A stretch of 64,000 bases of DNA, taken from positions 20,251 to 84,250 of the forward strand of contig CAZIZX010000004.1 of assembly GCA_964544275.1 (NCBI GenBank). Reading direction: 5' to 3'. Numbering within the stretch: position 1 is the stretch's first letter; each line of letters begins with the position of its first letter. The DNA comes from an uncultured Gammaproteobacteria bacterium. Its GTDB lineage: Bacteria > Patescibacteriota > Microgenomatia > UBA12405. The position numbers and the translations under genes were made by a program. Shown here piece after piece: positions 1,885 to 56,354 of the stretch. The notes beneath the pieces were generated by a model, which worked only from the letters and a program-made list of their open reading frames with translations, was not told the origin of the DNA and did not search any database.

Positions 1885-3207
1885 TTGTTGCTTTACATGT
1901 CAACAACCAAGCTGGGCATTTTTATCCAAAAGTTCAAAAATATTTTTTGGCACCTCCCCAAAAGTATATTTTTTAGTTACCTATATTCTTTCCCTTCCAA
2001 AAGATTTATTCTTATCGGTGTCACCGGCACCGACGGCAAAACAACTACCAGTACTCTCATTTATCACACTCTCCAAAAAGCCGGCTATAACACCGGCCTG
2101 ATAACCACCATTGGCGCCAAAATCGGAGATAAAGAAATCAGCACCGGCCTCCACACCACCAGTCCCGACCCTTCAATCATTCAAAAACTCTTCCAGGATA
2201 TGGCCAAAACCGGAATTACTCACGTTGTCTGTGAGGTTACTTCTCATGCTCTTGACCAGTACCGTTTTTGGGGCTGTGATTTTGATGTTTCCCTTCTCAC
2301 CAATATTTCCCACGAACATCTAGATTACCACCAAAATATAGATAACTACATCGCTTCCAAATCACGATTGTTCCGTCAATCCCGACATTCCATTCTCAAC
2401 AAAGACGACCTATCCTATCAACCCATAAAAAACTCTGTCAAATCTACCGTTTCCACCTATAGCATTACCAGTAAATCTGATTTTCAAGCCAAAAATATCA
2501 AATTAGGCCAAAAATTAACATTCCAGGTAAACAATATCAAACTCTCTACCGACAGCAATTATTACTATCAAGTCTACAACATTACCTCTGTTCTGGCACT
2601 GATGTCTCACTTAAAAATTGATATAAATTATCTGCTCAATACCATTAAAACGTTTCCGGAAACCAAAGGCAGAAGAGAAAGAGTGGTAAACGACTCAAGC
2701 ATAAACACTATTATCGATTTTGCCCACACTCCGGCAGCTTTGAAATCGACGCTCACTTCTCTAAAAAAGACTAACAAAGGCAAACTTTTAGTCATATTCG
2801 GCGCCACTGGAGGTCGCGATCCATCCAAAAGACCACTTATGGGTCAAGTAGTCTCACAAAATTCTGACATCGCCTTTATAACCGCCGACGATACTAGGGA
2901 TGAAAATATCTTCGACATAAACAAACAAATTATTTCCGGTATCGACCCACAAAAATCAATACTAATCGACAGCAACTCTACCACTCTCAACAAAATCAAA
3001 AAAATCATCTCTGCCAACAGCAAAAAATTTATTTATTTTAGTGTTCCCAACCGCCAGGACGCTTTTGACCTAGCCGTTAAACTGGCTCAAAATAATGATA
3101 CTATCGTCGCCTGCGGCAAAGGTCATGAAACCACCATACTCCACGGTCAAACTGAATATCCCTGGTCGGAACAGGAAGCCTTTAGAACCGCTTTTAGATC
3201 AAAATAA
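1885..3207 (+). CDS. murE: Mur ligase, MurE-like (UDP-MurNAc-tripeptide synthetase)
   Basis: P-loop 'IGVTGTDGKTTT'. Mur ligase middle and C-terminal regions. The position after ftsI is typical of murE. Substrate assignment rests on position only. Confidence 0.7.
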   Translation: MLLYMSTTKLGIFIQKFKNIFWHLPKSIFFSYLYSFPSKRFILIGVTGTDGKTTTSTLIYHTLQKAGYNTGLITTIGAKIGDKEISTGLHTTSPDPSIIQKLFQDMAKTGITHVVCEVTSHALDQYRFWGCDFDVSLLTNISHEHLDYHQNIDNYIASKSRLFRQSRHSILNKDDLSYQPIKNSVKSTVSTYSITSKSDFQAKNIKLGQKLTFQVNNIKLSTDSNYYYQVYNITSVLALMSHLKIDINYLLNTIKTFPETKGRRERVVNDSSINTIIDFAHTPAALKSTLTSLKKTNKGKLLVIFGATGGRDPSKRPLMGQVVSQNSDIAFITADDTRDENIFDINKQIISGIDPQKSILIDSNSTTLNKIKKIISANSKKFIYFSVPNRQDAFDLAVKLAQNNDTIVACGKGHETTILHGQTEYPWSEQEAFRTAFRSK

Positions 3208-3828
3208 ATGATTACCTCCTTCAATATCACCACTTCTACCGACATCGAAAAAAACTACAACCTTGGATTGCTTCCTCAAAGAAACAACAAAAACCTTTTT
3301 TATCAGGAAAGTTCTGCTCGCTCAAACCTAGCCCGTTTTTCCATTAGTTCAGAAAACAGAAGGATTATTCGCAAAACTGAAAGCTATTCTTTCCAAAAAA
3401 TTCCACTAAATCAATTTTCCTATACACCCCAAATCCAAAAAACAATTAAAAGTTGGATCAAAGATTTAAGCTGGGATTTTCCTGTTGCCTCGGTCAAAAA
3501 CATTTTTACCAACCATATTTTTAACTATCTCTATATCTGGTCAGATTCGTCCGGAAAAACAATTGCCTACGCCATCTGTTTTTTTTCTGATACTATTTCC
3601 CACATTGCTTATGTTTTTTATGATCCCAAAGTATCTCACCACGACCTTCCCATCCGCCTGGTGATTCAATTTATCCAAGATAGCTTTAATTTAAAATTAA
3701 AATATTCTTATCTTGGCAGATTTTCTAAAAATACGGGCTATTACAAAAGGAACATGCCAGGTCTGGAATTCTTTGTAAATGGTAATTGGATTGAATATAA
3801 TAAAGAAAACCAACAATTACTTGCCTAA
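3208..3828 (+). CDS. ATE_C/Bpt-like aminoacyl-tRNA--protein transferase family protein (GNAT-like fold), function unknown
   Basis: The motifs 'FSISSENRRIIRK', 'SHIAYVFYDP' and 'YSYLGRF' resemble the conserved 'F-S-(K/R)SQRRVLRKN', 'S(S/A)VY-FYDP' and 'YYLGYY' blocks of arginyl/leucyl-tRNA-protein transferases (ATE1/Bpt). The comparison is from memory only. The gene is wedged between murE and the next Mur ligase. Confidence 0.4.
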   Translation: MITSFNITTSTDIEKNYNLGLLPQRNNKNLFYQESSARSNLARFSISSENRRIIRKTESYSFQKIPLNQFSYTPQIQKTIKSWIKDLSWDFPVASVKNIFTNHIFNYLYIWSDSSGKTIAYAICFFSDTISHIAYVFYDPKVSHHDLPIRLVIQFIQDSFNLKLKYSYLGRFSKNTGYYKRNMPGLEFFVNGNWIEYNKENQQLLA

Positions 3829-3833
3829 AAATC

Positions 3834-5228
3834 ATGCATATTCACATCGTCGGTATAGCCGGCACCATGACAGCACCCTTAGCTGTTGCCCTAAAAAACC
3901 AAGGTCACCATATCACCGGTTCTGACCAACAACAAATTTTTCCTCCAGTTAGCCATATTCTCAAAAAAGCCCAAATAAAGATCAATACTCAAAACATTAT
4001 CAATAGTCAAATTGATCTGTGCATTATCGGCTCGTCTTACCTCTCATTTGCCAACACCCGACAAGAATTTGATACCATCAAAAAACTAAAACTCCCCTAC
4101 ATATCAGCCACCGAATATATTGCCCAAAACGTTTGTAAAAATAATTCTATACTCGTTGCCGGAACATACGGTAAAACTACCATAACCAGCCTGATTTCTT
4201 GGATACTCATTCGCGCTCAATACCAACCCAGCTTCATGTTTGGCGGTGAACCCAAAAACAATATCCCCTCGCTTCAAATTCAAAATTCTGACTGGTCAAT
4301 AACAGAAGCCGATGAATCCATAAATGGCCTTGACCTCCAAGGGAAATTTCTTTACTACCCCCTAAAATATCTCCTGCTTACCAGTGCTGACTGGGAGCAC
4401 AAAGAATCCTACCTCAAAGAAAGTGATAATTTTTCAGCTTTTTCCCGATTAATAAAAAAAGTTCCTAAAGCTGGTTTTCTGGTTCTCAACTCTCAGGGCA
4501 CAAACATTCTTAAACTCTCAAAACTCACTCCGGCCAAAGCAATCTTCTATAATTCTAATTCCTCATCCTATTTCATCAAAAATACCACCAAATCTAACCA
4601 CCGCACCCTAATTACAATAGCCACCCCAAAAGGGGATTTAACCGTAATTAGCCGGCTCTGGGGTCAATTTAATTATGAAAATATTTTGGCGGCCGTTACC
4701 CTGACCAGCGAACTCGGGATCGACCCTTTAATTATTAAAAAAGCCATAGCCAGTTATAAAGGCATCAAAAGAAGACTTGAACTTTTAAATTTCTCCAATA
4801 ACATCCATTTTTTTGATGATTTTGCTCAATCGGCTTCCCGGATTCAATCCGTCATCGACAGCCTCAAACAAGAGTTTCCCCAATCAAACATAAAAGTATT
4901 TTACGAACCTCACGCCTCATATATGAAAAATAAAAACAGCCTACCTCAACTCAAGCCAGCTTTCAAAAATGCGTCCGAAATAATCATCGGAAAAATTAAT
5001 TACACCTCAACTAGTGATAAAATTAATCGGGTTACGGCAACGGACCTCAAAAAATCAATTGGCAACAATTCAACATATCTGCCTCTTTATGATCAGGTCT
5101 TTCGTCATTACACCCAAAACCTCAAACCCAATGACATTCTGATTCACATGAGTTCTGGCGGTATCTTAGGACTAAATACCTACAAAAAAATTATAAATTA
5201 TTTCAATAATGTCAAGATACATCGTTAA
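3834..5228 (+). CDS. murC: Mur ligase, MurC/Mpl-like (UDP-MurNAc--L-Ala ligase family)
   Basis: The N-terminus 'IHIVGIAGTMTAPLAVALKNQGHHITGSD' resembles the MurC/Mpl Rossmann start. P-loop 'VAGTYGKTT'. Overlaps murA by 20 nt. Confidence 0.65.
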   Translation: MHIHIVGIAGTMTAPLAVALKNQGHHITGSDQQQIFPPVSHILKKAQIKINTQNIINSQIDLCIIGSSYLSFANTRQEFDTIKKLKLPYISATEYIAQNVCKNNSILVAGTYGKTTITSLISWILIRAQYQPSFMFGGEPKNNIPSLQIQNSDWSITEADESINGLDLQGKFLYYPLKYLLLTSADWEHKESYLKESDNFSAFSRLIKKVPKAGFLVLNSQGTNILKLSKLTPAKAIFYNSNSSSYFIKNTTKSNHRTLITIATPKGDLTVISRLWGQFNYENILAAVTLTSELGIDPLIIKKAIASYKGIKRRLELLNFSNNIHFFDDFAQSASRIQSVIDSLKQEFPQSNIKVFYEPHASYMKNKNSLPQLKPAFKNASEIIIGKINYTSTSDKINRVTATDLKKSIGNNSTYLPLYDQVFRHYTQNLKPNDILIHMSSGGILGLNTYKKIINYFNNVKIHR

Positions 5229-6552
5229 TGGTGGCCACCCTCTAAAAGGTGAAGTTTCAATCAGAGGCGCCAAAAACGCCAGTTTTAAGCAAATAATCGC
5301 TTCCATGCTCTCCGATCAAAATACTCAACTTACTAATATTCCTCAAATTTCAGACGTTAGAATAACCCAAAGCATTGCCAGTAAACTCGGTGCCCAAATT
5401 ACCCAAACTGGAGAACATAGTATAGAAATCGTCACTCCCAAATTTATTTCAGACACCGTACCTCATGGTACTGGTCAAAAATCCCGAACCTCTTTTATGT
5501 TTGCTGCACCTCTTCTTGCCAGAAACGGCAGCGCCGTTGTTCCCTTTCCCGGAGGCGACAAATTAGGTGACAGGCCTCTGGACCGCCTGTTTGATTGTCT
5601 CGAGCAAATGAATATCAATATAGAAATAAAAGACGATTTAATTTTTTTCAAAACAGATCGTATCAAACCAACCCATTATCGCTTTCCCAAACCGTCTCAC
5701 ACTGTCACCGAAACAATTCTTATGCTCGCCGCCACCGCCAACGGTGAAACTATTTTAGATAATGCCGCTCTCGAACCTGAAATTGATGACTTAATCGACA
5801 TGCTCAATTCTATGGGAGCCAAAATTAACCGCGATAATTCAAATCCGAGCAAAATAATTATCCAAGGAGTACCTTGGCTCAATGGAACTAAACACCAGGT
5901 AATTTGTGATCGAAATGAATCGGTCACCTTCGCCTGTGCCGCTCTCGCCACCAAAGGTTCGATCAATATTCTTAAAATAGATCCTGATACTATCAAGACC
6001 TTCCTGGAAATTATCGACCAAATGGGCGCCAAAATTAACACCGGCAAAGACGAAGTTTCCGTTAGTTGGGATCAACCATTAAAATCTATATCTATCGAAA
6101 CATCTCCAGAACCCGGATTTATGACCGACTGGCAGGCAGTTTTTTCTGTTCTTCTAACTCAAGCCGTCGGCTGTAGTTCTATCATCGAAAGAGTCTTCCC
6201 CAACCGCTTCCAACACATTGAATACTTAAAACAAATGGGGGGCAAAATTAAACCGTTTAATCCCGAAAACACCCATCCTGATTTTTACTTTTTTAATCAG
6301 GAAAGTGATCGACCAGAATTTCAGCATGGTATCAAAATTTATGGACCAACCAAACTTATGCCCGACAATCTAGTGGTCAATGACCTTCGGGCCGGTGCTT
6401 CTGTAACACTTGCAGCCCTAGTAGCCTCCGGTCAATCGATAATTGATGGCGTCGAATATATTGAGAGGGGATACGAAAAACTGGCCGAAAGACTCAGCTC
6501 TCTTGGCGCCAGCATAGAATATATCAAAACCTCTTTAGTTCGACCCATTTAA
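5209..6552 (+). CDS. murA: UDP-N-acetylglucosamine 1-carboxyvinyltransferase
   Basis: The N-terminus 'IVNGGHPLKGEVSIRGAKNA' and the overall EPT-family length are MurA-like. The active-site Cys/Asp position was not checked. Confidence 0.9.
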   Translation: MSRYIVNGGHPLKGEVSIRGAKNASFKQIIASMLSDQNTQLTNIPQISDVRITQSIASKLGAQITQTGEHSIEIVTPKFISDTVPHGTGQKSRTSFMFAAPLLARNGSAVVPFPGGDKLGDRPLDRLFDCLEQMNINIEIKDDLIFFKTDRIKPTHYRFPKPSHTVTETILMLAATANGETILDNAALEPEIDDLIDMLNSMGAKINRDNSNPSKIIIQGVPWLNGTKHQVICDRNESVTFACAALATKGSINILKIDPDTIKTFLEIIDQMGAKINTGKDEVSVSWDQPLKSISIETSPEPGFMTDWQAVFSVLLTQAVGCSSIIERVFPNRFQHIEYLKQMGGKIKPFNPENTHPDFYFFNQESDRPEFQHGIKIYGPTKLMPDNLVVNDLRAGASVTLAALVASGQSIIDGVEYIERGYEKLAERLSSLGASIEYIKTSLVRPI

Positions 6553-6581: not shown

Positions 6582-7616
6582 ATGACCCACTTATACTTAG
6601 GACTCCTGCTTTTCTCCTTTTTTATTACCAGCATTTTAGTAGTTCCCTTCATCAACTTACTTTACAAACTAAAATTCCAACGGCAAAAACAAAAAACACT
6701 TGATTTCCAAAACGAACGCACTCCTACTTTCGACAAGTTTCACTCATCCAAATCCGGTACACCTATTGGCGGTGGCATTCTCATCATCTGCTCAGTTTCC
6801 CTGCTCTTCTTTTTCCTCCTGCCCATCCTCAAGTTTTCCAACATATTCATCTCCAGCAATTACCAAATCAACCGAGAAATCGAAATCTTATTTTTTACCT
6901 TTATCAGTTTTGGCTTGCTTGGTTTGTACGACGACGTTAAAAAATTCTTTGATTTCAAAATTAGCGGCTTTTTTGGCCTTCGCATGCGACAAAAATTTTT
7001 ACTTCAGGTCTTTTTGGCCCTGATAATATCCTCACTCATCTACTTCAGACTCAACATAAACTTTATTTACATTCCTTTTCTTGGTCCGCTAACTTTGGGT
7101 ATATTCTTCATCCCCATATCTGTTTTCTTTATTATTGCCTTTGCTAATTTTTTTAACATTACTGACGGCCTGGACGGACTTTCGTCAGGACTTCTGATGA
7201 TAGCCCTGTTTGCCTTTTGGTTTATCTCCAATACCTCACTCGACACTCCCATTTCACTCTTTCTTGCCCTCTGGCTTGGAAGTTTAATCGCCTTTCTCTA
7301 TTTCAATGTTTACCCCGCCAGAATTTGGTTAGGAGATGTTGGCTCGCTTTCCTTCGGAGCTACTTTTGCAGTTATTGCCATTCTTTTGGGAAGAATAGTG
7401 CCCCTATTAATTGTCGGTTTCCCCTTTATTGTTGAAGGCGTAAGCAGTGCTATTCAGATTGTCAGCAAAAAATATTTCAACAAAAGAATTATTCCGGCCG
7501 CACCACTTCATTTGACCCTTCAAAAAATGGGCTGGGAGGAACCAAAAATTGTTTCCCGTGCTTGGTTGGCCGGTATCATACTGGCAATATTTGGCTTATG
7601 GTTAGGTCTAAACTAA
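6582..7616 (+). CDS. mraY: Phospho-N-acetylmuramoyl-pentapeptide transferase
   Basis: Polytopic membrane protein. Motifs 'DDVKKF', 'NITDGLDGL' and 'NVYPARIWLGDVGSL' are typical of MraY. Confidence 0.9.
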   Translation: MTHLYLGLLLFSFFITSILVVPFINLLYKLKFQRQKQKTLDFQNERTPTFDKFHSSKSGTPIGGGILIICSVSLLFFFLLPILKFSNIFISSNYQINREIEILFFTFISFGLLGLYDDVKKFFDFKISGFFGLRMRQKFLLQVFLALIISSLIYFRLNINFIYIPFLGPLTLGIFFIPISVFFIIAFANFFNITDGLDGLSSGLLMIALFAFWFISNTSLDTPISLFLALWLGSLIAFLYFNVYPARIWLGDVGSLSFGATFAVIAILLGRIVPLLIVGFPFIVEGVSSAIQIVSKKYFNKRIIPAAPLHLTLQKMGWEEPKIVSRAWLAGIILAIFGLWLGLN

Positions 7617-8269
7617 ACACCAAACTATCAAATGAAGCCGAGCGTTATCTCGGGCTCCCTTATTGGCAAAACCGTCTAATCGACGGCAAAATTACCAAAG
7701 AAGGTTTTATGGGCGGCAAGGGCAACTGGCATCAAATCAACCAGGCCACAAAAGAACTGCTCTCCAAACTACCCCACAAACCACCTTCCTCTGAAATTTA
7801 TAACCTTCAAAAAAAGAACCATATTGGCATCGACTGTTCTGGTCTAGCCTATAATTTACTCAACTTTCTCTCGCTTGAAACAAAACAAAAAAGCATTGAG
7901 GAAAAAGTTGTCGGAACAGGAGGTAAATTTGGCATCAGGCGCGTCTCCTCAAATCTATTAACTTCGCCAGCAAACTCCATCCCAGTAACTTCTTATCAAA
8001 ACATTCAGCCGGGAGATTTAATCAGACTGGAAAAAGGTAGGCATGTAATTGTTATTTTAAAAAAAGTCGGCAACACCATAAATTATATTCACAGTAGCAA
8101 CAAAACCCTGATCCGGGGAGTCCACCTTGGCACTATTAAAATAATCAACCCCAAAGCTACTCTGGAACACCAGCACTGGATCGAAACCACCAAAGACAAC
8201 CAACCTTACTCTTCCTTGTTTAATTCCCAAAATGGCGACGGTATTTTCCGTCTCAAATGTCTAAGTTAA
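7562..8269 (+). CDS. NlpC/P60-family cysteine peptidase (cell-wall hydrolase)
   Basis: Catalytic Cys in 'IGIDCSGLAYN'. A downstream 'GDLIRLEKGRHVIVIL...IHSS' His block is NlpC/P60-like. The annotated start overlaps mraY by 55 nt, so the true start may be an internal Met (e.g. MGGKG). Confidence 0.5.
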   Translation: MVGRYHTGNIWLMVRSKLNTKLSNEAERYLGLPYWQNRLIDGKITKEGFMGGKGNWHQINQATKELLSKLPHKPPSSEIYNLQKKNHIGIDCSGLAYNLLNFLSLETKQKSIEEKVVGTGGKFGIRRVSSNLLTSPANSIPVTSYQNIQPGDLIRLEKGRHVIVILKKVGNTINYIHSSNKTLIRGVHLGTIKIINPKATLEHQHWIETTKDNQPYSSLFNSQNGDGIFRLKCLS

Positions 8270-8270
8270 A

Positions 8271-8438
8271 TTACTTTTCCTCAACTAATTCTTGGTACTT
8301 CAGTGGTTCTAGCAACAGAATCTCTACCTCAGTCCCACACTCATCACATTCCACAATATCTCCTACCGCCACATCAACCCCCAGTCTCTTCTCGTGCTTA
8401 CAATCAGGGCAAACAACTATTTTACTGTCTTTATTCAT
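8271..8438 (-). CDS. Small zinc-ribbon protein, LysW/amino-group-carrier-protein-like (55 aa, absent from the ORF track because it is under 60 aa)
   Basis: Reverse-strand translation gives MNKDSKIVVCPDCKHEKRLGVDVAVGDIVECDECGTEVEILLLEPLKYQELVEEK. It has two CxxC pairs. The pattern 'V.C..CG.E.E(I/V)..L(E/D)PL' recalls LysW. The acidic C-terminus ends EEK rather than EDWGE. It lies divergent to the PLP/ATP-grasp pair. Confidence 0.5.
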   Translation of the reverse strand: MNKDSKIVVCPDCKHEKRLGVDVAVGDIVECDECGTEVEILLLEPLKYQELVEEK

Positions 8439-8479
8439 CTTTTAATGTCAAAATATATTAAGTATCACAATTATAACCC

Positions 8480-9295
8480 ATGACACCTCTAGACCACACT
8501 TCTAATCTCTACTTCAAAAGGGAAGATCTGAATCCAACCGGATCGGCCAAAGATCGGGCTATTAGTCAACAGATAGAAAACCTCGTCCGTAAAAACTTTC
8601 ACTCCGCCGTCATATCCAGCTCAGGCAATGCCGCCATTTCTGCCATCCATTACTGCCAACAATCAAATATTCCATTGACCATATTTTTGTCACCCAAAAT
8701 TGATCCCAACAAACTTAAACTTATTCAGCAAAGACACCCTAAAATTCACTTTTCTCCAAAACCTGTCAGCGACGCCTTTAAATTTTCCAAAGCTAATTCT
8801 TCCTATTATCTTCGTCAATCAACAGATCCAACCGCCCTCAAAGGTTACCAGCAAATATCCAAAGAACTAATCAGCCAATTACCCCAAATCACCAGTATCT
8901 TCATCCCGGTTGGTAGCGGCACCACCCTCCTCGGCCTAAGTCAAACTCTGCCTAACAACGTCAAAATATTTGCCGCCCAGCCAGCATCCTATTGTCCCAT
9001 TAGCTCCCTTTTTGATCGCGATTACCAACCGGAGCAATCAACTATCACCGACGCCCTCTCCGTCAAATCCCTACCGCTTAAATCAAGCGTCATAACCGCC
9101 ATCAGACAATCAAGAGGGCGGGGGATTGTGGTCCAAAATCAATCCGTTATGGACGCCCAAACCACTCTTCTTAATTTGGAAATAAACTGTTCTCCAGAAG
9201 GCGCGCTTGCTTATGCTGCTTTCCTTAAAACTCAAAAAATCAAATCAGACCCGGGTAATTACCCGGTTATTCTTATTACCGGCACCCAAAGATGA
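8480..9295 (+). CDS. PLP-dependent enzyme, fold type II (threonine synthase / Trp-synthase-beta superfamily), short form
   Basis: 'FKREDLNPTGSAKDR' matches the PLP-lysine motif of threonine synthase, cysteine synthase and Ser/Thr dehydratase. At 271 aa it is shorter than ThrC. Its stop overlaps the start of the next gene (ATGA). Confidence 0.6.
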   Translation: MTPLDHTSNLYFKREDLNPTGSAKDRAISQQIENLVRKNFHSAVISSSGNAAISAIHYCQQSNIPLTIFLSPKIDPNKLKLIQQRHPKIHFSPKPVSDAFKFSKANSSYYLRQSTDPTALKGYQQISKELISQLPQITSIFIPVGSGTTLLGLSQTLPNNVKIFAAQPASYCPISSLFDRDYQPEQSTITDALSVKSLPLKSSVITAIRQSRGRGIVVQNQSVMDAQTTLLNLEINCSPEGALAYAAFLKTQKIKSDPGNYPVILITGTQR

Positions 9296-10455
9296 CCCGA
9301 CTGATAGATCAACTCAATAACAGTCACTTTATCTTCTACTTCCTGGTAGTCGATAATTTTTTGGATATCAGCTTGCCGGAACTAAAAAACTTTCACTTAA
9401 TCTACGCTTCCAAAAATCAAAATCTAAAAAGTCTCAAAAAAAACAACTTACCCTATTTTTGCCTCGAAGAACAAGGTATAAAACTCGATACCAAAAATTC
9501 CGGCAAACTTTTATCCCACAAACTGGTCGCTGAATATATAAAAAAGACCAGCCATGCTTCCAAGCTAACCCCAGCTATCATTCCTTTCAAACCATCCGCC
9601 AAAATCGATCATCTTTGTCGACTACACAAATGGACCCTGGTCAGTAATCCCTCAAAAGTCAACCGCCAGTTAGAAGACAAAATTAAATTTCCCCAAATTT
9701 GTCAACAGTTCAACATACCCGTCCTCCCTTTTTCCATTGGCAAACTTACTCAAAAAAATTTTCAGAAACATCAGCAATTATTCGGTCCGGACCTGGTCGT
9801 CCAAACCCATTTTGGCTGGGCCGGGAATAGCACTCACTACGCCAATACCTTCAGCAAAATTTCGAAATTAATTCCAACCGATACGCTGGTCAAATTTTCT
9901 CCCCTCATGGAGGGTTACACCCTAATAAACAATTGCTGCCAGACACATCTCGGTCTAATTCAAAGCCCTCCCGGTTTTCAGTTAACCGGAATCAAATCCT
10001 TGACCCAAAACCCTTTTGCCACCGTTGGTCGGCAATGGCCCTCTACCGCCCCACCAAATATCCAAAAGCAAGTCAGAAAAATAACCAACCAATTTTCTAC
10101 TCTTTTATCAAAATATAAATACCGCGGCTTTTTTGGACTGGACTTCTTTGTCTCCAAAGACCAAGTCTACCTCCTGGAGTGCAATCCTAGGTTAACCGCC
10201 TCTTTTTCCTTCTATACCCAATTAGAAAAAAACGCCAAAATTACACCTTTATTCTATTACCATCTAGCTGAGTTTATTAGCCAAAATTATAAATTTAATT
10301 ATACTTTACAAAAATACCGTTTTAATAATACCTCTATCGTTGGGACCGAACTGACACCCAAAAACAAAAATAACGTTACTATCCAAAAAATTCATATACC
10401 ATCAACTGTTCATTCGGTTCAGAATATTCCGAATCTCTCCATTAATCTCCCTTGA
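9292..10455 (+). CDS. ATP-grasp ligase (Ddl/CPSase-like C-terminal ATP-binding block), function unknown
   Basis: The C-terminal 'YRGFFGLDFFVSKDQVYLLECNPRLTASFSF' matches the ATP-grasp E-x-N-(P) Mg/ATP block ('R.DFF...YLNEIN..PG' in Ddl, 'EMNPR' in CPSase-like enzymes). The N-terminal half is divergent. It occupies the murD/ddl position in the dcw cluster. Confidence 0.55.
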   Translation: MTRLIDQLNNSHFIFYFLVVDNFLDISLPELKNFHLIYASKNQNLKSLKKNNLPYFCLEEQGIKLDTKNSGKLLSHKLVAEYIKKTSHASKLTPAIIPFKPSAKIDHLCRLHKWTLVSNPSKVNRQLEDKIKFPQICQQFNIPVLPFSIGKLTQKNFQKHQQLFGPDLVVQTHFGWAGNSTHYANTFSKISKLIPTDTLVKFSPLMEGYTLINNCCQTHLGLIQSPPGFQLTGIKSLTQNPFATVGRQWPSTAPPNIQKQVRKITNQFSTLLSKYKYRGFFGLDFFVSKDQVYLLECNPRLTASFSFYTQLEKNAKITPLFYYHLAEFISQNYKFNYTLQKYRFNNTSIVGTELTPKNKNNVTIQKIHIPSTVHSVQNIPNLSINLP

Positions 10456-11630
10456 AAATGAACAAGTCTCAAAATAGATATATTCTTCCCCTGGTTACTT
10501 TTTCCTTGGTTTTAATTGGCTTAATTTTTATATCAGTTTCGTCTCTCTCCGAAGCCTCTTCCACTACCGGCAATAAATTTTTCTTTATCGAAAAGCAACT
10601 AATTTGGCTGGGATTAGGCCTAATCTGCTTTTATTTTTTCTCCAAAATCAAAATATCCACCATCCAAAAAATGTCTTTCCCTCTATACATTGTCTCGATA
10701 ATAACCTTGGTTCTGGTTCTCATTCCTACTCTGGGAAATCAGGCATTAGGTGCCAGACGTTGGCTGGATTTAGGCATTATCGGCATTCAGCCCTCCGAAA
10801 TTGTTAAATTCACCTCCATAATCTACTTCTCCTTCCTTTTCTCAAAAGAAAACAAAAGAAACATGAAAAACCTGATTATCTACTTGGCTATTCCTTTCAT
10901 TCTAATTCTTCTTCAGCCCAATTTAAGCACAGCCATCCTGATTTCTACCATCGTCATTTCCGTCTATTATCTGGCCGGCGGCGAAATTATGTCCCTCTTT
11001 CTTCTCTGCATTTCCACCGCTTTTTTGAGCCTATTATTAATATTCACCTCCTCCTACCGGCTTGCCCGATTTAGAACTTTAATCAACCCCCAGGAAAACA
11101 CCACTTCCGCCTCCTATCACAGCAATCAAATAATTTTAGCCCTCGCCTCAGGAGGCTTTTTTGGTAAAGGTGTTGCCAACTCAGATCAAAAATACCGCTA
11201 TATTCCCAAAGTTTCTACCGACTCGATTCTGGCGGTTATCGGAGAAGAGACCGGCTTTATCGGCACCGGTTTAATCGTTCTAATTTACCTCTACCTGATC
11301 ACCTACCTTTTTAAATTAGCCCAAAAAATCACCGACCCGTTCCAGTCTCTCTTCGTCAGTAGTACCGCCTGCTGGATCGGTTATCAATGTTTAATTAACA
11401 TTTCAGCTATCGTCGCCATCATCCCTCTAACCGGCGTTCCTCTTCCTTTCATCTCCTATGGCGGATCTTCTCTCATCACTCTACTTTCAGCCATCGGTCT
11501 GGTTAGAAATATCGAAAAAAACAATGCCAAGCTGATATACTCAATTAGTGAACCAGAAAGTAAAGACCATCCTGATAACCGGCACCCACATTACCCCGGC
11601 CGTCGAGCTCATCAACCAACTCAAAAATGA
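10452..11630 (+). CDS. ftsW: SEDS-family peptidoglycan glycosyltransferase FtsW
   Basis: About 10 TM helices. Motifs 'ARRWLDLGIIGIQPSE' and 'IPKVSTDSILAVIGEETGFIG' are SEDS-like. Sits between the mur genes and murG. Confidence 0.85.
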   Translation: MKMNKSQNRYILPLVTFSLVLIGLIFISVSSLSEASSTTGNKFFFIEKQLIWLGLGLICFYFFSKIKISTIQKMSFPLYIVSIITLVLVLIPTLGNQALGARRWLDLGIIGIQPSEIVKFTSIIYFSFLFSKENKRNMKNLIIYLAIPFILILLQPNLSTAILISTIVISVYYLAGGEIMSLFLLCISTAFLSLLLIFTSSYRLARFRTLINPQENTTSASYHSNQIILALASGGFFGKGVANSDQKYRYIPKVSTDSILAVIGEETGFIGTGLIVLIYLYLITYLFKLAQKITDPFQSLFVSSTACWIGYQCLINISAIVAIIPLTGVPLPFISYGGSSLITLLSAIGLVRNIEKNNAKLIYSISEPESKDHPDNRHPHYPGRRAHQPTQK

Positions 11631-23465: not shown

Positions 23466-24155
23466 ATGAAATCGGTTGTCTATTTCTTTTTTACCTTATT
23501 CTTGTTTGTAACCACCAGCCTCCTTTTAACCCAAAATTATTGGCCTCAAATGTTTTCTGTCCAAGACCCAATCGATCCCGACAATTTAATCGAAAAGTTC
23601 AGTACTTCCACCACTGGAATATTTGACAACAAACAGGTACCTGTTCCTAAGTATTCATACAGCAACCCACTCATCCTGGGTGATCAATCCGATGACCATG
23701 TCCAAAAAAGAATTGAGGTCGACCTGACTACTCAACGTTTATACGCCTACGAAAACGACGCCTTGATATTTAACTTCATTGTTTCTACTGGCAAATGGGA
23801 CCGAACTCCTACCGGCACATACAAAATATGGACCAAAATACGATCCCAAAAAATGTCCGGTGGCTCAAAAGAATTAGGAACCTATTATTATTTACCCAAC
23901 GTTCCTTTTATTCTATTTTTTTATAACGAAAAAGTTCCCAAATCTGTAGGTTATAGCATTCACGGTACTTATTGGCACAATAATTTTGGTGTTCCCATGT
24001 CCCACGGCTGTGTCAACATGAAAACAACCGAAGTTGAACAAATTTTCAACTGGGCTGACCATAATACGCCCATTACAATTTACGGTAAATACGAAACCAA
24101 ACTTCCCGACGCCAACCTCAACCCTAAATATTCTACTCTAATTTCTAAAATCTAA
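23466..24155 (+). CDS. L,D-transpeptidase (YkuD domain), membrane-anchored
   Basis: N-terminal TM helix. Catalytic 'HGTYWHNNFGVPMSHGCVNM' (His...SHGC). Confidence 0.8.
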   Translation: MKSVVYFFFTLFLFVTTSLLLTQNYWPQMFSVQDPIDPDNLIEKFSTSTTGIFDNKQVPVPKYSYSNPLILGDQSDDHVQKRIEVDLTTQRLYAYENDALIFNFIVSTGKWDRTPTGTYKIWTKIRSQKMSGGSKELGTYYYLPNVPFILFFYNEKVPKSVGYSIHGTYWHNNFGVPMSHGCVNMKTTEVEQIFNWADHNTPITIYGKYETKLPDANLNPKYSTLISKI

Positions 24156-30195: not shown

Positions 30196-30813
30196 CTATT
30201 CTATCACAGACGAAGTTTCGATTCTGGGTATTTCCAATACCATTCCAATCTCAATCTCGGAGGGATTCACTACCTGACTTTTATTAGCCTCCCAAATATT
30301 CACCCAACGAAAACCATCGCCGTAGGCTGCTACCGCCAACTTCCACAAGTGATCACCCTTCACCACTGTATATTTTTCTCCTTCAGTAATCTTTGAAACT
30401 ATTCTTTCGCTTTCTTGAACACCCTCCTGCTCCATTTTGGGCAGCAGTAACTTTTGACCAACTTCAATGAGTCCAACGTTCTCTATGTTATTCAAACTAG
30501 CAATATCCTTCCAAGCATAACCATTGTTTAATTTATTCTCCGCAATTCTCCACAAGCTATCACCGGCCACTACTTCATAAGTATTGCCATCCACAGTTAC
30601 CCTATCTTCTCCCGATCCTTGGCCAGAATTATCACTTAAAGATAAATTTTCAAAACTGCTTATACCCGGGATATCAATACTCCCCCTCCTTTTTTGGACA
30701 AAATTTACCACCAACCCAATTACCACAACCACCACCAATAATCCCAAAAACATACTGACGATTTCCTCTGCCGAATTTACTCCCAATTTATCTTTTATCC
30801 CATTTATTTTCAT
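30196..30813 (-). CDS. LysM-domain protein (two LysM repeats), membrane-anchored
   Basis: TM helix. Two 'Y.V..GD.LW.IA' LysM motifs (YEVVAGDSLWRIA and YTVVKGDHLWKLA). Confidence 0.75.
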   Translation of the reverse strand: MKINGIKDKLGVNSAEEIVSMFLGLLVVVVVIGLVVNFVQKRRGSIDIPGISSFENLSLSDNSGQGSGEDRVTVDGNTYEVVAGDSLWRIAENKLNNGYAWKDIASLNNIENVGLIEVGQKLLLPKMEQEGVQESERIVSKITEGEKYTVVKGDHLWKLAVAAYGDGFRWVNIWEANKSQVVNPSEIEIGMVLEIPRIETSSVIE

Positions 30814-35981: not shown

Positions 35982-37385
35982 TTGACTAAAAAGGAAAAGA
36001 TAATGAAGAATATAGATATAAAAAGTCTTATTAAGGACAATGTAATGTCGGCCGACGAAATCCTGGAATATATTAATGGAAATATCCCCTATGTTGGAAA
36101 AGATTTATCCAATGTAGTTCTATACAAGAATTATAAAGAGTGGAAACAGATTTTAGAGAAATACCCAAAATCGCAAATTATTAATACAAGTAGAAGGAAA
36201 ATATTATTTGATAAAGAAATGCGGAGCCTTGTTATACCAACTAATGAAGGAAATTTTAAAGGTTTCCAATATTCAATACAAGTAAAAGTGTTGAATTATT
36301 TACTGGGCACAAATATTACCTATCAAGAGATTGATCTTCATGATGAAAAAGAATTGTGGAATGAATGGACTTTACGGTTAATCAATAATTGTAAGAACTA
36401 CTCAGTTTCAAACATAACAGGAACTATCGTCGGTAGTATCAATAATACTTATTTTAGATTCAGTAAGTATTTAAATCATCCCATCCTTTGCAATTTGGAT
36501 GGATTCTATAAATCCATATTATCAACGGTGGAATTTAGGAAATATCTTGAGTACAGATTAGATTTAATTTTGGCCGAAGAAGATCTAGTGCTCGGTCGTC
36601 ATCAATTTGATAAAACCTTGTTCATCGATTTTCAACACATTCCTCTTCCTTCAAAAATGGATTATCAAAAATGCGTTGTTGCCAAGGACTATATCTATGA
36701 CCGACCAAATAGACTAGCCAAATTAAATTCAAACGAAAACTTAATTGATTACATTAAAGCTGATTATATTTATTCTCTTGATAGATTGAATCAAACAAAC
36801 TCTATTGATCCTGTATTTCAATCGGAAAATCCTATCATTGTTCGGGATTCATTATTGAGTTATCAGTTAATAAATACCGGGAAGGAATGGCTTATTAATT
36901 TTGACTGGGTTTCATCGAGTCAAATAAATAAAGCCCTGGAAATAATTTCCGGAAACTTTAATATTACCCATTTCTACAATTTTGGAAAATGTGGTTATTT
37001 CGGTAAACGCCTAAAAATCGGCGATTTGGTCAAGCCGATATCTTGTAAAAAGTATCCTGGGACAGGAGGAGAGATTAATTTCATTAATAACATTAGAGTC
37101 GGAACAGAATGCAAGAATTTAACAGTGGACTCGCCCCTTCTCGAGACTCGACCAGGGTTGGTGAATGAAGCAAAAAGCTTCGGATATTCGTCAATAGAAA
37201 TGGAGTTGTTTTATATGCTTAAGGCTCTTAAACCGCATTCCAAAAAATATATTTGTTACTATGTTTCCGATACGCCACTTTCAAATACCAAGTTATCTGT
37301 CAGACTCGACTCTTTAAAGCCTAGGCTGGAAGTTCTCGAAGAAATATTCAATGAAATAGTAAAAAATCATTTTATTGCTCAATAA
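35982..37385 (+). CDS. 467-aa protein with a C-terminal PNP/UDP-phosphorylase-like (nucleosidase) domain; N-terminal ~300 aa unknown
   Basis: 'GKCGYFGKRLKIGDLV' resembles the PNP/MTAN phosphate-binding 'G.AGG...L..GD.V' block. 'SSIEMELFYM' resembles the catalytic 'VEME(S/A)AA' block. The start abuts the HD gene stop. Confidence 0.4.
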   Translation: MTKKEKIMKNIDIKSLIKDNVMSADEILEYINGNIPYVGKDLSNVVLYKNYKEWKQILEKYPKSQIINTSRRKILFDKEMRSLVIPTNEGNFKGFQYSIQVKVLNYLLGTNITYQEIDLHDEKELWNEWTLRLINNCKNYSVSNITGTIVGSINNTYFRFSKYLNHPILCNLDGFYKSILSTVEFRKYLEYRLDLILAEEDLVLGRHQFDKTLFIDFQHIPLPSKMDYQKCVVAKDYIYDRPNRLAKLNSNENLIDYIKADYIYSLDRLNQTNSIDPVFQSENPIIVRDSLLSYQLINTGKEWLINFDWVSSSQINKALEIISGNFNITHFYNFGKCGYFGKRLKIGDLVKPISCKKYPGTGGEINFINNIRVGTECKNLTVDSPLLETRPGLVNEAKSFGYSSIEMELFYMLKALKPHSKKYICYYVSDTPLSNTKLSVRLDSLKPRLEVLEEIFNEIVKNHFIAQ

Positions 37386-42486: not shown

Positions 42487-43122
42487 TTAATTAATTATTA
42501 TTTGAAGTATCTTTGATTTTTGATAACAATCCTCAATAGAATCTGGTTGCCACCAACCTTGGAGCTCGCTATTAGGTATCAATACTTTGTCTGCACAGGG
42601 AATCCTACCCGGACTAAATCTCCAACCCATAGGCCATAAGTCAACAGATTGATCAGGTTTGCCTTCGCGAACTTGTAGCGGCATACTGCCACTAAACTTT
42701 AAACCGAGCCGTGATTCGATAGCTAAATTTATAGCTACATGGTGGAACTGGTTTGGTAATCCCGGCACACCGACTAATAGCCTTGGTTTAAAAGCCTCCT
42801 CTCTTGTTACCAGATCTCTGTCGTAAACATAACTGGCATTTTTGATTACCCACCGGCTTTCTTCAGGATGTGATTGAAAGAACGATGTGTACCCTTCAAC
42901 ATATACTTCTTCAAATACCTGGTCAAAATCAACAACTCGGCCATTCGAATATCTCCATCTAACTCTCCAGTTATTTAATCCGTATTTCTCTGTCAATTCG
43001 GCTTCAATTCTGTCTCTATCTCTCCCAAAGAAGCCAATATTTTCTATAGTTTCCCATGCTTCGACATCTGACATTCTGTAATAATAACACCAAATCCATA
43101 TTATTGAATGTTTAGTTGGCAA
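42487..43122 (-). CDS. Hypothetical protein (211 aa)
   Basis: Protein-like composition, co-directional and tightly spaced with the AMP-ligase. No motif recognised. The probable start is the internal 'MSDVEAW'. Confidence 0.3.
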   Translation of the reverse strand: MPTKHSIIWIWCYYYRMSDVEAWETIENIGFFGRDRDRIEAELTEKYGLNNWRVRWRYSNGRVVDFDQVFEEVYVEGYTSFFQSHPEESRWVIKNASYVYDRDLVTREEAFKPRLLVGVPGLPNQFHHVAINLAIESRLGLKFSGSMPLQVREGKPDQSVDLWPMGWRFSPGRIPCADKVLIPNSELQGWWQPDSIEDCYQKSKILQIIIN

Positions 43123-43181: not shown

Positions 43182-44033
43182 TTATTTTATATCTTTATCC
43201 AGGACGACTAGGTGTGGAATTGATAATTTTATCAAGTCATCTTTCAGTTTAGATAATCCGACATAAATGCCTGGGTGACATTCACTCATTTTCTTTTTGC
43301 TTCCACAAACACATTTTTTGTAACCTTTGATATTTTTCCTCTTTTTGAGCATTTGCTGAAGAGTGAACTTTTCTTCAGACCGAATTACCATCGAAAACAC
43401 TTTCTCCGTTTTCTCTCGTGAATGAGAATGTGTCTCCCCGTATTTCTCGATAATCCCTAATACGCCGTGAGCATATTCTCCCCAAGGCCAGTGTCGGTAC
43501 CTTTGGTAAAAAGTCTGCTCGTAAAAAAATGGAATAACCATCTGGTTAATGAATTCACTCAACTTAAATCCTGAGGGGAAGTATTCAACTTCAGCCCCCG
43601 CCACACACAGACAAACTGCCCCGTTTGGATTAACGTGAAGATCCGGCAGGTCAATTAAGTTACCCTTGGCGAAGCTCTCAATTTTTTTATCGACTTCAAA
43701 CACATGTGGCAGTTTTGAGGATGGAGTAGAGGTGAATGTCATTTTTATCTGGTATTCATCCTCAACATAGACTCCATTGCTTTGCCCGCCCGCCTGTGGT
43801 CCTATTAAAAACGAGTTATCTGAATTGTTGTAGCTCATAGCAAATTTCAAATTGCCTTGAATTTCATCAACCCCATCAACCCGTCTATCCGCAGTCAATA
43901 GAGGATGGTATTTTTTGAGCCACCCTAGATCTTTGATGGCGAGCCTTAGGTCAAAAGGTTCTCCACGGTTTGGGCGGTGAATGTCCGACATAGACGTTTT
44001 GGGTAAACTGCTTATTATCCTCAAGCTCTTCAT
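43182..44033 (-). CDS. Hypothetical protein (283 aa) with a SEC-C-like metal-binding motif
   Basis: 'KKCVCGSKKKMSECHPG' matches the SEC-C 'CxCGSxKKxKxCC/H' motif. The rest is unassigned. Confidence 0.35.
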   Translation of the reverse strand: MKSLRIISSLPKTSMSDIHRPNRGEPFDLRLAIKDLGWLKKYHPLLTADRRVDGVDEIQGNLKFAMSYNNSDNSFLIGPQAGGQSNGVYVEDEYQIKMTFTSTPSSKLPHVFEVDKKIESFAKGNLIDLPDLHVNPNGAVCLCVAGAEVEYFPSGFKLSEFINQMVIPFFYEQTFYQRYRHWPWGEYAHGVLGIIEKYGETHSHSREKTEKVFSMVIRSEEKFTLQQMLKKRKNIKGYKKCVCGSKKKMSECHPGIYVGLSKLKDDLIKLSIPHLVVLDKDIK

Positions 44034-56000: not shown

Positions 56001-56354
56001 CCGAGTCGTGAGCTTGAGAATTCCACGTCTGATTGTCATATCTTTGTTATGAGGAATAACATAGACATGATTTGGGCGGACAGGGGTTTCGTCTTTCGCT
56101 TCTATAACCCGCATTGTCGTAGCTTTTGATAAGAGCTTGGCCAAAATACTCTCATGGTTAGGATCAAGATGTTGAACCAAGACAAAACCCATGCCTAAAT
56201 TTTCAGGTAGAGCTTTTAAAAATTGAGTGAACGCCTCGAGCCCTCCTGCAGACGCACCAATACCTACAATAGGGAAAAAACTACTTGTAAAAGAGTTCTG
56301 CTCGTTTTCCTTTCTATAATTCGGTTTGACCATTTTTGGCAGGTCATCTCTCAT
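53067..56354 (-). CDS. CheB-methylesterase / CheR-methyltransferase / coiled-coil / PAS / histidine-kinase fusion protein (1095 aa)
   Basis: CheB catalytic 'IVGIGASAGGLEAF...VLVQH'. CheR 'FFREHHTF...VWVPGCATGEEVYSIAM'. Heptad E/Q-rich coiled coil. PAS. HisKA 'ASHELKTPIT'. HATPase_c 'GFGLGLYIAAEII'. Confidence 0.8.
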   Translation of the reverse strand: MRDDLPKMVKPNYRKENEQNSFTSSFFPIVGIGASAGGLEAFTQFLKALPENLGMGFVLVQHLDPNHESILAKLLSKATTMRVIEAKDETPVRPNHVYVIPHNKDMTIRRGILKLTTREKGNKPHMPIDQFFTSLAKSQKERAIGIILSGTASDGTLGLTAIKSEGGATFAQDSSAKYQGMPQAAIASGDVDFILAPDEIANELIKMNNHPYVQQSQILQDQQGLPEHEDGLKMIFFMLRKSFGIDFSHYKRATMQRRIRRRMLFHKIKTLKSYIEYLKDNNGEIAILNDDLLINVTSFFREHHTFQFLYDTIFPRLIKNRSPKEPVRVWVPGCATGEEVYSIAMSLSGFLAGKSLNIPVQIFGTDVSKTAIEKARVGKYSQRDVVGIEPKNLTLYFEKSGGFYQINKSIREMCIFALHNVFTDPPFSKLDLISCCNLLIYFDLSLQDRTLRAFQYALKPGGFLMLGKSEATSASPELFSQIDKKYKIYTRKDITFRGNGGFRTIIPKLDNQVDRSAVMINEPVVDSAEIQKQADTILLSHYTPASVVINNDLEIIQFRGSTGMFLEPSQGKPSFNLIKMAREGLGFELRSAISKVKKSGKPFRKEGIPLSQSTNVKLVNVEVLPLKGSSTELYYLVLFEDTTKYVSQAGIVPIKQTVDRHKREAKYNRITELEQELVQTREDMRAVTEEMEATNEELQTASEEILSSNEELQSINEELETSKEELESTNEELITVNEELQNRNEQLLEAHNYAEAIIRTVQIPLIVLDRDLRVKTTNRSFQQMFQVSSEESIGNFVYDLGNGQWNIPSLRKLLNEILPQDNVFDNYEIQHSFPVIGHKVMLLNARKFYKDGDNILLAIEDITDRKDIEQQKDSFIGIASHELKTPITTLKAYAQILKKRISQRNDSKDTYLIQNINDQTDRVANLISDLLDTSKIQAGKMIMTKKNFDLNVIVSKMIADFQHTTETHQIVKEGEIKEQVFGDQSRIEQVLSNLIANAIKYSANSDKVIVRMETDKKNAIVSVKDFGSGIEKRDQAKVFERFYRIRDKGETNVAGFGLGLYIAAEIIKGHQGKIWVESERGKGSKFYFTLPLGKS

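Follow-up and report, generated by a model that had tools for sequence, protein, structure and literature searches.

A LysW-fold mini-gene with a C-terminal Glu-x-Lys tail in a conserved cassette beside cell-wall genes: a probable marker of an undescribed step in bacterial cell-wall precursor synthesis

The mini-gene described here encodes 55 amino acids (aa) and lies on the minus strand at positions 8271..8438 of a 64,000-nucleotide stretch of contig CAZIZX010000004.1 (assembly GCA_964544275.1; the whole 64-kb stretch is called the window in the following). The surrounding plus-strand genes of the window form the dcw cell-wall and division cluster, and the mini-gene is placed antisense within it. 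It is a real protein gene under purifying selection, and its product belongs to a distinct subfamily that combines a LysW-fold ribbon, the C-terminal sequence E-x-K and a coding position head-to-head with a threonine-synthase (ThrC)-like pyridoxal phosphate (PLP) enzyme, behind which an orphan ATP-grasp ligase is encoded. Collectively, the data indicate that the mini-gene probably marks an undescribed step in bacterial cell-wall precursor synthesis. The open reading frame (ORF) itself is not new, because relatives have already been labelled LysW, whereas the cassette with its Lys end, other enzymes and other pathway is undescribed in the literature searched: full-text searches combining LysW with the candidate phyla radiation (CPR), or aimed at amidoligase or peptide-tagging systems and at CPR glutamate racemase, returned no description of the cassette and no link between LysW and CPR bacteria.

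The mini-gene and the EEK-tail subfamily

The mini-gene begins with ATG, ends with the stop codon at 8271-8273 (minus strand) and encodes the protein MNKDSKIVVCPDCKHEKRLGVDVAVGDIVECDECGTEVEILLLEPLKYQELVEEK, a translation identical to the one quoted in the first-pass annotation, which had been made from the letters of the window and had proposed a LysW-like zinc ribbon at this place. Two zinc knuckles can be read from the sequence, C10-P-D-C13 (CPDC, codons 10-13, 8400..8411, minus strand) and C31-D-E-C34 (CDEC, codons 31-34, 8337..8348, minus strand), the latter followed by GTE, whereas the C-terminal tail E50-L-V-E-E-K55 (ELVEEK, 8274..8291, minus strand) is proposed as functional end on the basis of its conservation. 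When 5.8 billion proteins were searched, the identical protein was found, already present as a gene call, together with 38 homologues of 50-59 aa and 56-82% identity. The earlier description of the ORF as unannotated applies to the feature track with its 60-aa limit but not to the public databases, in which the relatives are called 'lysine biosynthesis protein LysW' by NCBI and JGI. In the alignment of 39 close homologues, the core GDI-x-EC-xx-CGTE-x-E and the tail residues E50, L51, E53, E54 and K55 are invariant, and the four cysteines C10, C13, C31 and C34 do not change in these or in 38 distant homologues. The mini-protein has a pI of 4.5 and a net charge of -7; orthologues from genomes with 35-67% guanine plus cytosine (GC) have pI values of 4.1-4.3.

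Coding capacity was further judged from 64 distinct homologous DNA copies, among which the mean pairwise diversity in the mini-gene frame amounts to 0.28, 0.18 and 0.55 at the three codon positions. The frame is kept open across homologous loci of 35-67% GC. The overlapping plus-strand ORF of 62 aa (8257-8445), which had been regarded as less protein-like from the beginning, gave no family match in profile scans and its frame is interrupted by stop codons in 33 of the 64 copies; it is rejected as a true gene. An RNA element at this locus was likewise rejected, since the Rfam scan returned nothing at the mini-gene or in the 41-bp spacer next to it and the only matches in the window were six tRNAs, all elsewhere. 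The notion that no coding gene exists at 8271-8438, i.e. that the ORF arose by chance or that the plus-strand ORF is the real one, could draw on the small size of the ORF and its opposite orientation within a one-directional gene cluster as well as on promoter, terminator and ribosome-binding signals that are not clear above background: the scan revealed one promoter-like site (8693-8666, minus strand) and one terminator-like site (8168-8148, minus strand), in numbers not clearly above shuffled sequence. This notion has practically no chance of being correct and is already refuted by the conservation data, namely by the frame that stays open in one strand and is broken in the other, by the invariant residues and the codon-position diversity, and in addition by the existing gene calls, the Pfam match and the structural matches to LysW. 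The three outcomes that the first-pass annotation had named as speaking against the minus-strand gene, a frame not conserved among relatives, no LysW profile match and conservation of the plus-strand ORF instead, all turned out the other way, and the proposed check of frame and C-terminus in related genomes found both of them conserved.

The similarity to LysW is seen at the level of profile, homologue family and predicted structure. The Pfam model PF21344 (Zn_ribbon_LysW) matches the mini-protein with 32.3 bits (gathering threshold 27, E 7.5e-8), and a profile built from the homologues retrieved LysW of Thermococcus (5k2m_E, E 2.8e-8) and of Thermus (3wwl_A, 7.6e-8) from the PDB. The AlphaFold (AF2) model contains five short strands at a mean predicted local distance difference test (pLDDT) score of 82, and LysW chains account for all six of its best PDB matches, with template modelling (TM) scores of 0.64-0.75, root mean square deviations of 1.3-3.1 Å and a probability of 1.00, while lower matches represent noise. 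Judged by these profile matches and the predicted model, the mini-protein is a LysW-fold zinc ribbon with four cysteines, which agrees with the initial proposal.

However, a LysW fold does not imply a LysW function. The mini-protein remains below the cut-offs of both NCBIfam models, with 27.7 bits for the LysW equivalog TIGR01206 (cut-off 53.2) and 26.7 bits for the LysW/ArgW family NF041070 (cut-off 75); hence, the suggested test against LysW/ArgW models was passed for Pfam but not for the two more specific profiles. LysW/ArgW proteins are defined by the zinc-binding cysteines together with the C-terminal EDWGE, in which the gamma-carboxyl of the terminal Glu carries the substrate, and this EDWGE is read by the GSWGR motif of LysX/ArgX (PMC10433800). 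The sole known role of the fold is that of an amino-group carrier, which is loaded by an ATP-grasp enzyme and unloaded by a hydrolase (PMC10433800). The tail of the mini-protein, ELVEEK, has no EDWGE and no Trp, and Lys stands in place of the terminal Glu. Moreover, LysZ/ArgB kinase, LysY/ArgC reductase, LysJ/ArgD aminotransferase and LysK/ArgE M20 hydrolase were found neither among the window ORFs of at least 150 aa that were scanned or read nor in the gene tables of related loci, and the same applies to any amino-acid kinase, semialdehyde dehydrogenase, class-III aminotransferase or M20 hydrolase in these two sets. The public annotation, which would make the mini-protein a canonical LysW/ArgW protein that carries alpha-aminoadipate or glutamate in lysine or arginine synthesis, can point to the Pfam domain match and to the names of the relatives, but it is most improbable: the tail, the missed cut-offs, the missing pathway genes and the type of the neighbouring ligase, which is not LysX-like (see below), rule out this function. 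The mini-protein does not belong to lysine or arginine biosynthesis.

When 1.84 billion representative sequences were searched exhaustively with a profile, 704 matches were obtained, and the tails of the best 150 were counted. Among these best 150, the tail EEK, often as [LIV]EEEK, occurs in 37 and the canonical WGE in only 8. A set of 38 diverse EEK-tail sequences, 33-61% identical to the window protein, has only the four cysteines and the terminal Lys as invariant positions; K55 is the sole invariant residue other than Cys in this distant set, and the two preceding Glu residues (E53/E54) are at least 90% conserved. Rare variants end in ETK, EQK, EDK or EGK, and because they keep the terminal Lys and the Glu two residues before the C-terminus, the signature of the subfamily is E-x-K-COOH. 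The tail is conserved where the neighbouring gene overlaps the mini-gene and also where it does not, therefore its conservation is intrinsic. The acidic character (pI 4.1-4.5) was found in all lineages tested, which span 35-67% GC. The same search also returned six proteins of 185-1126 aa with 3-9 tandem matches to the LysW-like zinc-ribbon profile (P0165, P0171, P0172, P0173, P0239, P0305), i.e. multi-ribbon proteins. Furthermore, the 90%-identity cluster of the Dormibacteria mini-protein P0263 also lists two Malassezia proteins of about 950-990 aa and short fragments, which looks like an artefact of database clustering.

The cassette, its enzymes and its link to MurD

The mini-gene is separated from the start codon of its divergent partner by a head-to-head spacer of 41 bp (8439..8479). 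This partner (8480..9295, plus strand) encodes a minimal PLP enzyme of fold type II, 271 aa long, that resembles threonine synthase (Pfam PALP, 151.7 bits). With a family profile, its best matches are solved threonine synthases (E 1e-29 to 1e-24), next Ser/Thr dehydratases and then Ser/Asp racemases, cysteine synthases and SbnA, and CysM chains such as 3dwg are among the PDB matches, while a search with the single sequence put serine racemase first. Neither the PLP-lysine motif GS.K.R nor the SS(S/T)GN loop varies.

Next in the same direction comes the gene for a 387-aa orphan ATP-grasp ligase (9292..10455, plus strand; Pfam ATP-grasp_3), which starts 854 bp from the start codon of the mini-gene and is its constant neighbour, so that the distance of about 850 bp given in the first-pass annotation was accurate. 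The link to the RimK family that was suggested there did not hold for this ligase. NCBIfam PRK06524 matches with 92 bits, far under its cut-off of 684; a sequence search of the PDB gave no match and thus none to LysX or RimK, and the AF2 model (pLDDT 94.9) finds its nearest folds in biotin carboxylase, PurK and PurT (TM about 0.6, 11-15% identity), with LysX and RimK absent from the top 50 fold matches. The sequence carries GWAGNS and nothing like GSWGR. By sequence and predicted fold, the ligase is thus classified as not of the RimK/LysX type. It appears catalytically intact, given that the E-x-N-x-R and K/S motifs for nucleotide and Mg are invariant even in orthologues with 24-32% identity.

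On the other side, the stop codon of the mini-gene lies 1 nt from that of the gene for a cytoplasmic cysteine amidase of the NlpC/P60 type (7598..8269, plus strand), which is recognised by a weak Pfam match (NLPC_P60, 19.2 bits) and by its catalytic residues. Its ORF opens at TTG 7562 (235 aa), and alignment and sequence indicate ATG 7598 as the likely start. Orthologues match NLPC_P60 confidently (68 bits in the contig L099; also matched in L093 and L094), the catalytic Cys in D-C-S, which is C92 of the 7562 ORF, and the catalytic His are invariant, and no signal peptide was detected in the amidase. Its identity with the orthologues amounts to 38% for Gottesmanbacteria and 37% for L097, and an amidase was found in all five lineages with enough sequence to judge. 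The partner enzymes carry a basic net charge in low-GC lineages, yet this does not apply to L093 or L091, and charge complementarity with the acidic mini-protein is therefore no general argument.

The distribution of the cassette was analysed by scanning GTDB species representatives with the ATP-grasp alignment, which yielded 92 relatives and 80 loci that were kept, and by looking up contigs carrying homologues. The 92 species represent a lower bound, because the two search patterns of the scan catch only Microgenomates-type sequences. All relatives from the scan belong to Microgenomates (Shapirobacteria, Woesebacteria, Gottesmanbacteria). Many of the scan records (L012, L013, L017, L019 and others) are titled 'uncultured Gammaproteobacteria bacterium' yet carry typical Microgenomates dcw clusters with the cassette, and the organism names of that catalogue of metagenome-assembled genomes are unreliable. 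The mini-gene was found on the opposite strand upstream of the ATP-grasp gene in 66 of the 69 genome-scan loci with at least 1.25 kb of upstream sequence; it is missing in L059, L076 and L085. Overall, over 80 genomes share the conserved mini-gene. The combination that defines the subfamily is present in the window, in these 66 loci and in the distant members L007-9, L091, L092, L093/94, L097/98 and L099. Across about 70 loci, the start codons of PLP enzyme and mini-gene are mostly 15-50 bp apart, and the 3' end of the gene on the other side, coding either for NlpC/P60 or for MurD, abuts or overlaps that of the mini-gene in most loci (gap +2 to -49 nt).

The pair of PLP enzyme and ATP-grasp is retained at only 24-40% identity in Gottesmanbacteria, L092, L093/94, L097/98 and a Dormibacteria-type contig. 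In Gottesmanbacteria, the orthologues reach 38%, 38% and 36% identity with the window proteins, the mini-protein is 35-43% identical and ends in PLEEEK, and the genes are arranged outside the dcw cluster in the order NlpC/P60-like, MurD-like ligase, antisense mini-gene, PLP enzyme and ATP-grasp. L093/94 shows the order MraY, NlpC/P60, MurD, mini-gene, PLP enzyme and ATP-grasp, and in L097/98 a longer run is seen (MraY, PaaX-like, NlpC/P60-like, MurD, mini-gene, PLP enzyme, ATP-grasp, FtsW, MurG, FtsQ, FtsA), while L092 and L095 are short fragments with matching arrangement. The most remote example comes from a lineage with 67% GC, the proteins of which are named Candidatus Dormibacteria by NCBI; therefore it is not a CPR organism. 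Its 103-kb contig L099 carries NlpC/P60, a MurD-like ligase, the mini-gene (tail FVDEEK), PLP enzyme and ATP-grasp as one five-gene block, which is flanked by MoxR/VWA genes and by DnaJ, at a distance from any dcw cluster.

A MurD-like ligase stands directly beside the mini-gene, in convergent orientation, in five other lineages, two of which are known from truncated fragments alone. For every Mur ligase touching the mini-gene the best model is the MurD equivalog, with 260.7, 202.9, 193.1 and 161.8 bits; the cut-off of 212 is passed by one full-length protein, and the truncated ligases of L091 and L095 reach 160 and 129 bits. As far as gene content and profile matches indicate, the conserved unit consists of nlpC/P60, murD, the lysW-like gene in antisense, the thrC-like PLP enzyme and the ATP-grasp gene. 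The MurD slot is empty in the window and in its relatives from Shapirobacteria and Woesebacteria. MurD, MurF, MurB and Ddl were not found in the dcw cluster of the window, which contains MurE and a MurC/Mpl-like ligase, and tblastn detected no MurD orthologue anywhere in the 64 kb.

The antisense placement of the mini-gene has been kept over very deep divergence, and in most lineages examined it falls inside an otherwise one-directional cluster. The promoter of the mini-gene must lie within the coding region of the PLP enzyme, and read-through transcripts of the cluster are antisense to the mini-gene.

Possible roles of the mini-protein

How the mini-protein contributes to cell-wall synthesis can at present be approached from its tail and its partners. 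We tentatively favour a role as covalent carrier and think that it might well apply, without considering it as established. In this general model, the ATP-grasp enzyme would attach an amino acid to the carrier tail at the expense of ATP, the PLP enzyme would convert the tethered amino acid, and the amidase would cut off the product, thereby regenerating the carrier and feeding the MurD step. It is supported by the terminal Lys as the most conserved residue other than Cys, by the partnership of the mini-gene with a catalytically intact ATP-grasp, a PLP enzyme and a cysteine amidase, and by the linkage of this set to murD. The first-pass annotation had left the choice between a variant carrier and a different use of the fold, and the same reading was reached here. 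It had not noted the surroundings that tell most about the mini-gene, namely the dcw cluster, the PLP enzyme and the amidase as partners and, in other lineages, MurD next to it.

ATP-grasp enzymes join a carboxylate to an amine via an acyl phosphate, fold-type II PLP enzymes require a free alpha-amino group, the usual target of NlpC/P60 enzymes is a gamma-D-glutamyl bond to a diamino acid, and MurD requires D-Glu. Because the cassette is welded to murD and because of this typical NlpC/P60 specificity, the simplest specific version starts from L-Glu, the gamma-carboxyl of which would be joined to the epsilon-amino group of the terminal Lys55; the PLP enzyme would then racemise the tethered Glu, the alpha-amino centre of which is free, and MurD would receive the D-Glu that is cut off by the amidase. 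Such a carrier-dependent supply of D-glutamate, or of another stem-peptide amino acid, for peptidoglycan via a Lys tether is clearly less probable than the general model and rather unlikely. In Shapirobacteria, where murD is gone from the cassette, the carrier route might extend to the ligation step itself.

Several points weigh against the carrier role or its D-glutamate version. First, the lineage of the window has lost murD from the cassette, which weakens a strict coupling to MurD. Second, the PLP enzyme seems by sequence to have its nearest relatives not in racemases but in threonine synthases, the substrates of which are phospho-amino acids. Third, the ATP-grasp enzyme appears from its model to be unrelated to LysX beyond the superfamily and most similar to bicarbonate- or formate-activating enzymes. 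Moreover, known NlpC/P60 enzymes cut the gamma-D-Glu bond to the alpha-amino and not to the epsilon-amino group of the diamino acid. Finally, the free tail in the model of the mini-protein comprises about 5 residues and is shorter than that of LysW, and an antisense position within an operon is odd for an abundant carrier.

An alternative that should be taken seriously, even if we do not expect it to be correct, regards the zinc ribbon as non-covalent accessory or regulatory subunit, which binds, organises or regulates the PLP enzyme, the ATP-grasp and/or MurD, for example as acidic scaffold or by imitating the -Glu-Lys terminus of the stem peptide. The enzymes would then act on free amino acids or on uridine diphosphate (UDP)-MurNAc-peptides, for instance as racemase and D-amino-acid ligase like the enterococcal Rac/Asl pair. 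Such a role is in line with the short free tail, with the plausible stand-alone chemistry of both ATP-grasp and PLP enzyme, and with the fact that the tightest and most universal linkage is the mere adjacency to the PLP enzyme and MurD; in addition, an ATP-grasp D-aspartate ligase and a racemase build peptidoglycan cross-bridges on the epsilon-amine of Lys without any carrier. However, an invariant C-terminal residue and a dedicated cytoplasmic cysteine amidase fit a covalently loaded end and not a scaffold, and the LysW fold has no known role other than that of a carrier.

It has also to be considered that the encoded Lys is only a cap. In this case the amidase would clip off the terminal Lys and the ATP-grasp would load an amino acid, Lys-like or other, on the exposed Glu, in a cycle similar to that of tubulin tyrosination. 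The nearly invariant Glu two residues before the C-terminus would be explained in this way, the encoded -Glu-Lys end resembles LysW-gamma-Lys, the last LysW-bound intermediate, and a papain-fold peptidase combined with an ATP-grasp follows the logic of vasohibin and tubulin tyrosine ligase (TTL) on the -EEY end of tubulin. Nevertheless, we regard such a cycle as quite unlikely, because the cargo, with its alpha-amine blocked, could not be used by the PLP enzyme, because a mere cap would not explain why Lys is invariant, and because the recognition motif of the LysX type is absent.

Still further from the evidence is a graspetide-like peptide, in which the ATP-grasp would close a lactam between Glu and Lys within the tail and the mini-protein modified in this way would itself be the final product. 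Graspetide ATP-grasp ligases join Glu or Asp side chains to Lys or to Thr/Ser, and the tail offers Glu and Lys, but this option is very unlikely given the single conserved copy inside core cell-wall clusters, the absence of an exporter from any locus and of a leader peptidase, the folded zinc ribbon with a single E-E-K end instead of a variable or repeated core, an ATP-grasp nearest to biotin carboxylase, PurK and PurT rather than to graspetide/RimK-type ligases, and the lack of any role for the constant PLP enzyme and MurD.

To our knowledge, carriers of the LysW type have been described solely for lysine and arginine synthesis and for a few antibiotic pathways, always with a Glu end and the same enzyme set. 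Here, a Lys-ended relative travels with three different enzymes and MurD, in core cell-wall genes of CPR bacteria as well as in the unrelated Dormibacteria, and the cassette suggests an early, so far undescribed step in the synthesis of peptidoglycan precursors. CPR bacteria are ultra-small and make few amino acids. For EEK-tail genes, the name 'lysine biosynthesis protein LysW' in public databases is almost certainly incorrect and would inflate the biosynthetic capacity predicted for their hosts. The mini-gene also shows that a conserved antisense gene of less than 60 codons can go unnoticed in one of the most studied gene clusters of bacteria. If the D-glutamate version of the carrier model were true, it would represent a new chemistry of LysW carriers, with a Lys tether rather than a Glu tether, and would at the same time stand in for glutamate racemase in Microgenomates and Dormibacteria, driven by ATP and in one direction only.

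Neighbouring genes and known systems for comparison

The cell-wall and division genes of the window are all encoded on the plus strand and begin with FtsI (234-1883) and MurE (1885-3207, 440 aa, TTG start), followed by an ATE_C-like protein of 206 aa (3208-3828), the MurC/Mpl-like ligase (3834-5228), MurA (5209-6552) and MraY (6582-7616). After the cassette, the cluster continues with FtsW (10452-11630) and then MurG, FtsQ, FtsA, FtsZ, IleRS and RodA. MurE matches the MurE model only from model position 75 on, therefore its usual N-terminal domain seems to be missing. The protein at 3208-3828 shows weak likeness to the C-terminal domain of arginyl-tRNA-protein transferase (Pfam ATE_C 21.9 bits, below the threshold of 25; NCBIfam arginyltransferase E 3.6e-7), and a weak ATE_C match occurs at the same position between MurE and the MurC-like ligase in the related loci L001, L003 and L006. 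Judged from these matches, it may be an aminoacyl-tRNA-dependent transferase acting on a peptidoglycan precursor. Further cell-wall-related genes beyond the dcw cluster encode a YkuD L,D-transpeptidase (23466-24155, plus strand), a transglutaminase-core protein (62193-63971, plus strand) and a LysM protein (30196-30813, minus strand). The window also contains a 1095-aa fusion of CheB methylesterase, CheR methyltransferase, PAS, HisKA and HATPase (53067-56354, minus strand), which is unusual for a small CPR-type genome, and three ORFs of 467, 211 and 283 aa without Pfam match at E <= 0.001 (35982-37385, plus; 42487-43122, minus; 43182-44033, minus).

Several known systems resemble the cassette in parts of its supposed logic. 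The enterococcal D-aspartate ligase Aslfm of Enterococcus faecium attaches a D-amino acid to the epsilon-amine of the Lys that follows Glu, for peptidoglycan, and it is coded together with an aspartate racemase, as ATP-grasp and racemase would be in the proposed reading of the cassette; however, its acceptor is the UDP-MurNAc-pentapeptide and not a protein, carrier and amidase are absent, and the racemase is PLP-independent. The cycle of tubulin detyrosination and tyrosination by vasohibin and TTL likewise concerns an encoded terminal residue after -EE, on which a papain-fold peptidase and an ATP-grasp act, but it is a eukaryotic regulatory modification without PLP enzyme and without metabolic product. 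As an analogy only, the CysO-CysM-Mec+ system of Mycobacterium tuberculosis can be mentioned, in which the C-terminus of a small carrier is activated, an enzyme of the PALP family acts with the carrier end and a dedicated peptidase frees the product. It differs by its beta-grasp fold, GG end, E1-like adenylase and JAMM protease, where the EEK-tail cassette has a zinc ribbon, an EEK end, an ATP-grasp and NlpC/P60. A ubiquitin-like carrier of the CysO/ThiS type was rejected for the mini-protein on account of the zinc-ribbon fold, the EEK tail and the absence of an E1-like gene from the loci. In secondary metabolism of Streptomyces and Serratia, pathways depending on an amino-group carrier protein (AmCP) use LysW homologues to build non-proteinogenic amino acids. 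These pathways demonstrate that a LysW-type carrier can be reused outside primary Lys/Arg synthesis for an unusual amino acid, although they keep the Glu-ended tail and the enzymes of the LysX/Z/Y/J/K type, none of which occurs in the EEK-tail cassette. With regard to the D-Glu position, Xanthomonas MurD2/MurL provides a precedent for a non-MurI supply route coded together with a MurD-type ligase, which proceeds by epimerisation on UDP-MurNAc-L-Ala-L-Glu (PMC8788868, PMC5808125). Unlike the EEK-tail cassette, MurD2/MurL includes no carrier protein, PLP enzyme, ATP-grasp or amidase.

The closest known relatives remain LysW/ArgW of Thermus thermophilus, Sulfolobus and Thermococcus kodakarensis (PDB 3wwl, 3vpb, 5k2m). 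They have in common with the mini-protein a size of about 55 aa, the four-Cys zinc ribbon with 26-46% identity over the ribbon at the TM scores given above, strong acidity with a conserved acidic C-terminal tail, and a coding position near an ATP-grasp ligase and a hydrolase. However, their tail EDWGE ends in Glu while the E-x-K tail of the mini-protein ends in Lys, their ligase is of the LysX/ArgX/RimK type while the one next to the mini-gene is not, and their partners are kinase, reductase, aminotransferase and M20 hydrolase instead of a ThrC-like PLP enzyme and an NlpC/P60 amidase. The genes lysWXJK form an operon (PMC3597687), whereas the mini-gene is antisense to its partners. Finally, unlike LysW/ArgW, the mini-gene has its setting among cell-wall genes, beside MurD.

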